Source of the DNA: Octopus vulgaris
Lineage: Eukaryota
Assembly: GCA_951406725.2 (NCBI GenBank)
Contig: OX597836.1
Location: 7,006,001-7,070,000, forward strand
Length of the DNA: 64,000 bases
Direction: 5' to 3'
Below the pieces are notes generated by a model, which saw only the letters and a list, made by a program, of their open reading frames with translations, ran no database searches and was not told where the DNA came from. How positions within the stretch are numbered: position 1 is the stretch's first letter; every line of letters begins with the position of its first letter. This document shows positions 27,010 through 41,987 of this stretch, one piece after another. The translations under genes and the position numbers were made by a program.

Positions 27010-27512
<503 letters not shown>

Positions 27513-27522
27513 CTGTCTGTCT

Positions 27523-27602
<80 letters not shown>

Positions 27603-27610
27603 CGATGGGA

Positions 27611-27661
27611 CCAATAGACCAGTCCCGGTTTCGAGCTATTTCTGCTACTCCTCAGTACTAG
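27611..27661 (-). ncRNA. Type I hammerhead ribozyme candidate, complete
   Basis: CUAGUA-CUGAGGA-G(U)AGC agaaaua GCUC-GAAA-CCG ggac UGG-UC-UAUUGG; all three stems can form, GUC cleavage triplet. Confidence 0.65.
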
Positions 27662-27713
27662 AGATGATAGCAGCTCAATTCTGCACGCAAGATATATATA
27701 TATATATATATAT

Positions 27714-28475
27714 TTTCTCTCTATTTCAGCTCAGAGTTGCAGCCATGCTGATGCACCCCGTTTTGTGCTACACTGTTATTACGAAGAACCTCGTCAAATA
27801 TGTGGCACTTGGTGAAGAATGGAGTTTGATACAGCTACTCTCATTTGCACCTCTTGCCGTGAGGTAGGTTCATCTGGGATTCTTGACAGGAAGATGTCTA
27901 GCTTTGATTTAAAAAACGCTACATCTACTTTGTGCAAGTTCCTCAGACTCTTTGGGAGAATATTAAAAAGCTGTGGGCCCTTGAAACCCAGGCTGTTGCA
28001 GAAGCTGATCCTGAAGCGTGATGGCATTGCTGGGATTTTTGGCACTATCCAGTGTCGTCCCGTTCTAGCATTGGTGTAGCTTACAATGCCAAAATTTGGC
28101 ACAATTTCTTCCAGGATCTTCCAGACATATATTACTCCATACCTCTCCCGTCTTCTCTCCAGGGAGTAGAGTCTTAGCTATTTCAACCATTCCCAGTAGC
28201 TGAGCTGTTGCAAAGAGACGATCTTCTTTGTGAATCTTCTCTGGATTGCTTCAAGGTCCGCTGTTAATTTTACACTGGTGGGTGACCATAGCTGTGAGCA
28301 GTAATCCAGGCGGCTGAGGACGAATGTCCGCCAGAGGACCATCATGGTCTCCTTATCTCTGGTTCTGGATGTTCTTAGGATCCACCCAGCCAGTCGTCTG
28401 CACTTTGTCGCCATCCTGGTAATGTGCACTTGGAAAGAGGTATCATCACTCATGTCGATACCCAGGTCCCTCACA
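27714..28475 (-). mobile_element. 5'-truncated CR1-clade LINE (RT C-terminus and 3' UTR)
   Basis: VRDLGI...GWILRT...LSRLDYCSQLWSP...LEAIQRRFTK...LSYWE.LK*LRLYSLERRRERY; typical CR1 motifs. Confidence 0.88.
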
Positions 28476-28776
28476 GATATATATATATATATACCGGGCA
28501 ACGAGAAACTCAGAGTAACAGATTTTGTTGAATTTTCTGCTGCCTTAAATAAAGTATATATATATATATCAAGCGAACACATAGTTGTAACAAGCTAAAA
28601 TGCTAGCTTTAAAATCTCTCTTAGAGATCATTGTAGCCACTTTAACATGGCTGTCCGTTCGAACGGATTCTACTGGTTCCGTCGGTAAAAGATGGTAGGG
28701 GTTCGCTCCAGTGCTCGCAACTTTATCGGATGCAGCTGTGCATTGTTAACCAGCTAGAGGAGATGCCCTCTTGACG

Positions 28777-28834
<58 letters not shown>

Positions 28835-34615: not shown

Positions 34616-35203
34616 AGGCGGCGAGCTGGCAGAAACGTTAGCACGCCGGGCGATATGCTTAGCGGTATTTCGTTTGCCGCTACGTTCTGAGTTCAAATTC
34701 CGCCGAGGTCGACTTTGCCTTTCATCCTTTCCGGGTCGATAAATTAAGTACCAGTTACGTACTGGGGTCGATGTAATCGACTTAATACCTATGTCTGTCC
34801 TTGTTTGTCCCCTCTATGTTTAGCACCTTCTCGGTAATAAAGAAATAGGTATTTCGTCTGCCGCTACGTTCTGAGTTCAAATTCCGCCAAGGTCGACTTT
34901 GCCTTTCATCCTTTTGGGATCGATTAAATAAGTACCAGTTACGCACTGGGGTCGATGTAATCGACTTAATCCGTTTGTCGGTCCTTGTTTGTCCTCTGTA
35001 TGTTTAGCCCCATGTGGGTAGTAAAGAAATAGCTATTTCGTCTGCCGCTACGTTCTGAGTTCAAATTCCGCCGAAGTCGACTTTGCCTTTCATCCTTTCG
35101 GGGTCGATAAATTAAGTACCAGTTGCGTACTGAGATCGATCTAATCGACTGGCTCCCTCCTCCAATATTTCGGGCCTTGCGCCTAGAGCAGAAAAGAATA
35201 TTT
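34616..35203 (+). mobile_element. SINE family A multimer: one head plus three body units
   Basis: gtatttcgt.tgccgctacgttctgagttcaaattccgcc repeats at about 34666, 34849 and 35032; a further diverged copy lies at 35215-35360. Confidence 0.9.
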
Positions 35204-41550: not shown

Positions 41551-41569
41551 ATAGATATGTGTACATATC

Positions 41570-41987
41570 TGTTTCTTTATTGCCCACTAGGGGGCTAAAT
41601 ATAGAGGGGACAAACAAGGACAGACAAACGGATTAAGTCGATTATATCGACCCTAGTGCGTAACAGGTACTTAATTTATCGACCTCGAAAGGATGAAAAG
41701 CAGAGTCGACCGCGGTGGAATTTGAACTCAGAACGTAGCGACGGGCGAAATACCTATTTCTTTATTACCCACAAGGGGCTAAACACAGAGAGGACAAACT
41801 AGGACAGACATAGGTATTAAGTCGATTACATCGACTCCAGTGCGTAACTGGTACTTAATTTATCGACCCCGAAAGGATGAAAGGCAAAGTCGACCTCGGT
41901 GGAATTTGAACTCAGAACGTAGCGACGGGCGAAATACCGCGAAGCACTTCACCCGGCGTGCTAACGTTTCTGCCAGCTCGCCGCCTT
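41570..41987 (-). mobile_element. SINE family A dimer
   Basis: TSD gatatgtgtacat at 41554-41566 and 41988-42000. Confidence 0.9.

Follow-up and report, generated by a model that had tools for sequence, protein, structure and literature searches.

A hammerhead ribozyme motif in Octopus vulgaris as a probable decayed and split copy of a non-LTR retrozyme

Hammerhead ribozymes adopt a gamma-shaped overall fold, and the extended hammerhead of Schistosoma mansoni SM-alpha combines a 6-bp stem I, a UGU internal loop and U1.7 with a loop II that ends in AAAUA. In the portions of Cervera and de la Pena (2020; PMC7229834) used here, canonical retrozyme hammerheads have helix III, and cleavage as a monomer is described as possible. 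Penelope-like elements (PLEs) are the second group of relevance. In vitro, an anole PLE starts reverse transcription at two fixed internal sites, uses AT-rich targets and accepts uncut RNA (PMC11167929), and inverted arms and a bias toward microsatellites are described for PLEs in the text available from 10.1101/2021.04.23.441226. The hammerhead pseudoknots described in the part of PMC3088659 considered here connect stems I and II. Here, we have examined a window of 64,000 nt from O. vulgaris (assembly GCA_951406725.2, contig OX597836.1, positions 7,006,001 to 7,070,000) that contains a hammerhead motif. We give a probability of about 0.88 to the reading that this sequence derives from a 361-nt non-LTR retrozyme and represents a copy that has decayed and is both split and truncated, with a hammerhead that the folding models predict to be locked in an inactive state.

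The motif occupies 27611-27661 on the minus strand, and the type I hammerhead elements named for it in a first-pass annotation were all borne out by the sequence and by a descriptor search. All 12 core nucleotides are intact. Stem I pairs CUAGUA (27661-27656) with UAUUGG (27616-27611) and includes two G-U pairs; the core segment CUGAGGA (27655-27649) is followed by stem II (27648-27633, G-(bulged U)-AGC/GCUC with loop AGAAAUA), the core segment GAAA (27632-27629) and stem III (27629-27618, ACCG/UGGU with loop GGAC). With C17 of the GUC triplet at 27617, cleavage is predicted between 27617 and 27616 from the sequence and the established hammerhead numbering. Both U1.7 (27610) and the 3' A of loop II are kept. 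The motif was the sole descriptor match in the window, and a stricter descriptor gave one match there versus none in 200 sequences of 64 kb simulated with an order-3 Markov model, so it is not a chance occurrence. The proposed check with Rfam models did not call it: no hammerhead was matched at the gathering threshold in the whole window, and none of the 19 weak matches within 27300-28000 was a hammerhead. The window contains a bona fide type I hammerhead motif, lying in what is very probably a dead fragment of a retrozyme family.

The 89-nt island around the motif has at least 41 matches in the 2.8-Gb genome, and the flanks of these matches share sequence as well. Hammerheads lie 361 and 371 nt apart in two loci with tandem units (L018 and L020), and the majority unit is 361 nt long with a GC content of 47%. 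A monomer query returned 90 matches from 1,582 first-look candidates; once duplicated loci and nested fragments had been dropped, the counts were based on 123 unique fragments in 103 loci. Exact searches with patterns of 26-32 nt gave 6, 7, 37 and 12 matches, and dividing the first three counts by the share of exact matches among aligned copies (2/60, 1/64 and 9/88) suggests, as a rough figure, some 200-450 copies over any given unit position. Identity of the copies to their subfamily majority has a median of 91% and a maximum of 95% (53 + 27 fragments); the family is old, and near-identical copies are absent from the sample. The core is kept in 27 of 74 hammerheads, and the core together with all helices in six of the 74. 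Family membership, unit length, and tandem and inverted copies are direct observations, with two-hammerhead tandem units present in 3 of the 36 pattern-anchored loci and an inverted arm in 13 of them. Family-like contigs were also found in three presumed-RNA runs (84, 19 and 14), as assembled contigs only, which are silent on level, strand and ends; when contigs were aligned to the window, the stretch 27603-27728 was passed over as repeat.

The unit is non-coding, falls within the 150-400 nt of non-LTR retrozymes and carries one type I hammerhead; at the family level it forms tandem units, is dispersed as a repeat and has a strongly structured monomer. The 361-nt length, the tandem copies and the structured monomer thus match the non-LTR retrozymes as presented in the available parts of PMC7229834 and of a 2026 preprint (10.64898/2026.07.22.740005), and by its sequence characters the family is best classified as a new member of this known class. 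A search of mainly open-access literature, at the level of main texts, brought up no paper on retrozymes in cephalopods and no account of this family.

In the family majority, stem I is CCAGUA/UACUGG, with Watson-Crick pairs throughout, and continues across a UGU/U internal loop, beyond which it is extended by about 38 pairs. A bulged base and the loop AGAAAUA characterise stem II, and stem III consists of A-U, C-G, C-G and A-U pairs around GGAC, each of which is kept in 25-30 of 32 alignment rows. A stable stem III is therefore a family trait, slightly weakened in the window copy, and the earlier comparison with minimal Penelope hammerheads was set in the wrong frame, the relevant class being canonical retrozyme hammerheads with helix III. 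It should be noted that all folding results are nearest-neighbour predictions, with tertiary contacts and Mg2+ outside the model. When the arms were included, the active fold of the family lay no more than 0.1 kcal/mol from the minimum, and the 361-nt majority circle reached -135.7 kcal/mol versus -101.6 +/- 5.7 kcal/mol for shuffles (0 of 100 as low; z = -6.0). The strand of stem III is self-complementary, with -17.1 kcal/mol for the dimer and -2.1 kcal/mol for the hairpin; thus, dimeric cleavage of the family hammerhead may be possible too.

Consensus folding of 32 copies with RNAalifold gave 6 pairs at -1.6 kcal/mol and missed the hammerhead, and no covariation above shuffles was observed for the canonical fold (263 of 500 as high). 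Compensatory changes among paralogues, which the first-pass annotation had put forward as a check, were found for neither of the folds under discussion. Such a result is expected for dead copies, since they decayed independently, and it gives no positive support. The two subfamily majorities differ at 17 positions, only five of them paired although 64% of positions are paired (P = 0.003); four of the five keep the pair, one breaks it, and none of the 17 falls on the 12 core positions. This avoidance of pairs and core argues that the master elements were under selection for the fold, as judged on a model structure that came from the majority sequence itself. A lower mismatch in the core (7.9% versus 11.5%, non-CpG sites) was set aside because the loci had partly been found by a hammerhead query.

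With regard to the ends of the copies, 37 arms anchored on patterns downstream of the cut were examined. Sixteen end at unit positions 168-173 and 11 at 223-232, that is, 27 of the 37 at two sites, mostly with CTT followed by ATAT or a similar tract (CTT/A sites). These 3' ends are fixed, as seen directly in the copies, and lie in AT-rich microsatellites, whereas the 5' ends are scattered and 26 of the 37 arms run upstream through the cleavage site. By analogy with PLEs, the endings at two CTT/A sites are interpreted as the footprint of Penelope-type insertion. As a separate candidate rule, a start of insertions at the cleavage site was rejected: of 123 fragment 5' ends, 7 fell in the 19 positions around it, where about 6.5 would be expected, and the pattern-anchored arms contributed 1 of 37.

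For the family, tandem units would be transcribed and cut by the hammerhead into monomers, which would probably be circularised, and either the circle or an uncut tandem transcript would serve as the template. A Penelope-like enzyme with reverse transcriptase (RT) and GIY-YIG domains would nick (TA)n-rich DNA and copy the RNA back, with reverse transcription beginning at the two internal sites. The genome does carry intact PLE ORFs with RT and GIY-YIG. One apparently intact PLE (L134:430-5672) has 456-bp direct repeats that are 99% identical and a pseudo-LTR (pLTR) with a minimal U3-A8 hammerhead. It encodes 765 aa of RT + GIY-YIG with a CxxC-CxxC linker, presumably Neptune-like, and has a second ORF, of 346 aa, upstream. 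Many open frames of 781 aa were also present among the PLE ORF matches.

The same footprints bear on an alternative in which the unit is the solo pLTR of an autonomous PLE and not an independent retrozyme. Fixed internal 3' ends, inverted arms and AT-rich targets are all of PLE type, and the 2026 preprint, in the part considered, derives animal retrozymes from pLTRs (10.64898/2026.07.22.740005). However, arms longer than one unit run into the next unit and not into an ORF (flanks read to 1.5 kb), and the sampled PLEs have minimal U3-A8 hammerheads and pLTRs unrelated to the 361-nt unit. In a sample of 30 GIY-YIG loci and 4 intact PLE loci, no RT + GIY-YIG ORF flanking the unit was found; the monomer showed no DNA similarity to the 4 intact PLE loci and gave one match only among the 30 GIY-YIG loci, to a separate repeat. 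We therefore regard a solo pLTR as unlikely and retain the retrozyme reading. A second tandem unit, of 360 nt, was observed at L138:6437-6990 (= L122:1-292). It has a minimal U3-A8 hammerhead in which a palindromic CAUG replaces stem III, its two copies are 96% identical, and over 75 nt it is 72% alike to family positions 36-110 (E 0.002). Possibly, the two units are sister retrozymes that share a body but not the ribozyme, this one being the younger. The same locus contains an LTR-retrotransposon-like stretch (L138:1-5750) with gag/pol-like frames and identical 173-bp repeats; after it comes a 594-bp tandem repeat that has inverted repeats inside it.

Further parts of the unit were identified in the window, and the motif, which had been taken to be stand-alone, lies in an island that is a fragment of the 361-nt unit. 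The upstream part of one arm lies at 28558-28675 on the minus strand (unit positions 118-272, with 28-nt and 9-nt deletions), and the downstream part of the same arm, with the hammerhead, at 27600-27699 on the minus strand (unit positions 263-378, with one 16-nt deletion). A second, inverted arm at 28669-28781 on the plus strand (unit positions 360-111) is 89% identical to the family majority and ends in (TA)n. It starts at the cleavage site, inside a 7-nt overlap with the other arm, which for its part resumes (position 118) 7 nt past the last unit position of the inverted arm (111). Similarity of the window pieces to the unit is 70-89%, gaps included; the copy has a single hammerhead, the tandem pair being absent here, and both arms end short of the usual 3' sites of the family.

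The two minus-strand pieces are consecutive in the unit and are separated at its internal (TA)n tract by about 860 bp that hold a LINE piece. Half of this tract (27692-27714, unit positions about 255-272) marks the split point. The LINE piece (27715-28470, minus strand) is a 5'-truncated 3' fragment with one in-frame stop, lying inside the unit. Thus, the island described earlier as lying beyond the 3' end of a same-strand CR1 is the far half of a split arm; the same-strand LINE 3' fragment is indeed there, and by its motifs it is presumably CR1-like. Pfam gave 0 matches on the fragment and a sequence atlas only unnamed eukaryotic clusters, and the fragment is highly repeated in assembled contigs. 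Other repeats were noted nearby. Flanked by (TA)n tracts, an unassigned 60-bp piece (28493-28555) separates the upstream retrozyme arm from the LINE 5' end; an abundant SINE-like repeat is represented by two pieces (27365-27512 and 27037-27167) just past the (TA)n downstream of the hammerhead; and tandem arrays of another abundant repeat, with a 184-bp period, are found at 34664-35150 and 41565-41938, this repeat also being present in the flanks of several family loci.

The lesions of the window copy can be read directly from its alignment to the family. Although the motif had been called apparently complete, 16 nt of the family stem I and the whole downstream arm are missing; the 16 nt occupy alignment columns that the family fills and the window copy lacks. 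The deletion maps between 27661 and 27662 (minus strand) and removed the UGU bulge and the normal partners of GUCCC. The GUCCC tail (27603-27611, minus strand), within which U1.7 lies, is the last remnant of the 3' arm, and the unit gives way to (TA)n about 14-17 nt past the cleavage site. Of the six Watson-Crick pairs of stem I, four are left, and the other two have become wobbles. Lesions were seen in other copies as well: a 13-nt deletion in the same stem I strand occurs at L006:1501-1578, and L010 and L031 have fold-back junctions inside the hammerhead. The history of this copy would have been a two-armed insertion into (TA)n, followed by the landing of a LINE fragment in the internal TA tract, with loss of the downstream arm and of the 16 nt of stem I, and with an A>G change in stem III. 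As a consequence, the upstream arm is left unpaired and would fold over the core, and a free GUCCC would pair with GGGAC.

A more speculative extension concerns the family itself. Two copies of ACUGG(UC) lie around the cut site (unit positions 1-6 and 316-361), and the active and inactive circle folds are near-isoenergetic in the model (-135.7 versus -135.6 kcal/mol). It is conceivable, if rather doubtful, that the 5' strand of stem I acts as an on/off switch, pairing downstream in the active state or with the stem III strand in the inactive one, and that the window copy is a double-priming fossil. If true, the switch would be a self-pairing answer to how animal retrozyme circles avoid self-cutting, a question left unsettled in the sections of PMC7229834 used here, and the window insertion would record double priming on one ribozyme-cut RNA.

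In the window copy, the three helices can form around the core, with helix I open; however, the hammerhead was the minimum-energy fold in none of the five window fragments folded and is not the predicted stable fold. The ensemble penalty of the hammerhead fold was 17.6-19.3 kcal/mol in four window fragments (73-201 nt) versus 2.4 kcal/mol in the family context. For the construct proposed in the first-pass annotation (27595-27680) it was 22.1 kcal/mol, falling to 15.1 kcal/mol without the GUCCC tail and to 12.3 kcal/mol without the upstream arm. The bare motif of 51-52 nt had a penalty of 6.5-7.1 kcal/mol, equal to that of the family's own 57-nt fragment (7.1 kcal/mol), and the z score of the 51-nt motif was +0.50. 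Ten natural sites of other copies ranged from 1.5 to 36.8 kcal/mol; since other natural copies score poorly too, the measure is noisy. The orphaned 5' arm of the long stem I extension (27662-27691, minus strand) is predicted to cover the catalytic core and stem II by pairing with them, and is the stronger predicted inhibitor, the GGGAC/GUCCC pairing being the lesser one.

These predictions are to be weighed against the suggestion that the window copy, by chance or exaptation, is a working monomeric ribozyme that cuts read-through or LINE transcripts past the LINE 3' end. Its core is intact, as in 27 of 74 copies, it has retained U1.7 and the loop II A, no helix is prevented from forming by its sequence, and it lies on the same strand as the LINE fragment. 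However, the upstream arm would be transcribed first and is predicted to lie over the core (penalty 15-22 kcal/mol), stem I is weakened as described above, and the LINE is 5'-truncated and stop-bearing and split the unit at its internal (TA)n, which explains the adjacency. Cleavage as a monomer in its own context, which the earlier annotation considered feasible, is thus predicted to be very unlikely, mainly because of the upstream arm that it had overlooked, and we consider a working ribozyme quite improbable. With core, U1.7 and loop II A retained, a trimmed construct could cleave in vitro without implying activity in the cell. The available text of PMC11875169 cites O'Rourke et al. for a U1.7-loop II contact that is sufficient for fast cleavage at 10 mM Mg2+, and a section heading of the same paper states that U7 is not essential in its own system.

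We also examined the extra pairing. The complementarity claimed between GGGAC (27626-27622) and GUCCC (27611-27607), both on the minus strand, is present. The first G of GGGAC is a rare change from the family A (G in 5 of 90 aligned letters), and CCGGGAC is intact in 1 of 74 copies. Four pairs (GGAC/GUCC) are possible in the family majority too, each of them in 88-94% of rows; of the 32 rows, 6 keep the fifth pair and 3 have the full 5-bp complementarity. The five-pair helix thus owes its existence to the A>G change and to the deletion by which GUCCC became free. The helix clashes with the hammerhead at two of its five pairs, one taking the closing G of stem III and the other the terminal G of stem I; it would therefore form in place of the active fold and cannot coexist with it. 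No covariation was observed (32 rows; 456 of 500 shuffles scored as high, and their mean was above the observed score), and a conserved, covarying stem I-stem II helix compatible with the active fold, as in pseudoknotted hammerheads, is absent. Of the two possibilities raised earlier for this pairing, the inhibitory alternative stands and the pseudoknot does not, as it lacks covariation and overlaps stems I and III; in the models used here the pairing is best regarded as an inhibitory hairpin, an accident of decay with no selected function. A functional pseudoknot or selected regulatory switch is hardly credible: five pairs do form on paper in the window copy and four in the family majority, but full complementarity and covariation are as poor as stated, the helix borrows Gs from stems III and I, three of the five letters of GUCCC belong to the extended stem I of the family, described pseudoknots connect stems I and II instead, and the gamma-shaped fold would leave no linker from the far end of stem I to loop III. 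The import of the window copy itself is small: it illustrates that a repeat, as it decays, can come to resemble a textbook ribozyme and acquire a spurious 'pseudoknot'.

Compared with known systems, the family resembles SM-alpha in having a 6-bp stem I followed by an internal loop with UGU and U1.7, and a loop II ending in AAAUA, and differs from it by the bulged stem II nucleotide, CUGAGGA or CUGAAGA in the core and a 4-bp stem III; the window copy in addition lacks the bulge strand while U1.7 is retained. With the pseudoknotted hammerheads of Perreault et al. (2011), as described in the part of PMC3088659 considered, the window copy shares extra Watson-Crick complementarity outside the core; there the helix activates the ribozyme, whereas the window pairing would connect the end of stem I with loop III, overlaps both stems and is unconserved. 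The pLTR hammerheads of PLEs, according to the available portions of PMC4209133 and, for the PAc element, PMC11167929, are of type I with AT-rich insertion, as in our family, and PLE pLTRs likewise show two discrete internal 3' ends (a 'tail') and inverted 5'-truncated arms, with insertions that often span an uncut hammerhead. Unlike these pLTRs, the family has no ORF and its hammerhead is canonical and not minimal, and a distance of 58 nt separates its two 3' ends, compared with the 30-40-bp tail of PLEs. The closest systems are the metazoan non-LTR retrozymes in the available text of Cervera and de la Pena (2020; PMC7229834), among which the mussel repeats of 350-390 bp are nearest in size. 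They differ in that our family is old, is characterised here at the level of DNA sequence and has a GC content of 47% versus less than 45% in that scheme, and in that the window copy is a single-hammerhead fragment. Common to both are a unit that is non-coding and measures about 360 nt, a single hammerhead of canonical type I with helix III, tandem dimers, solo copies, a strongly structured monomer and a PLE as the proposed mobiliser. To this class the octopus family adds a retrozyme with Penelope-type footprints (two CTT priming sites, microsatellite targets and read-through of the cut site), which would support the proposed mobilisation of animal retrozymes by PLEs.
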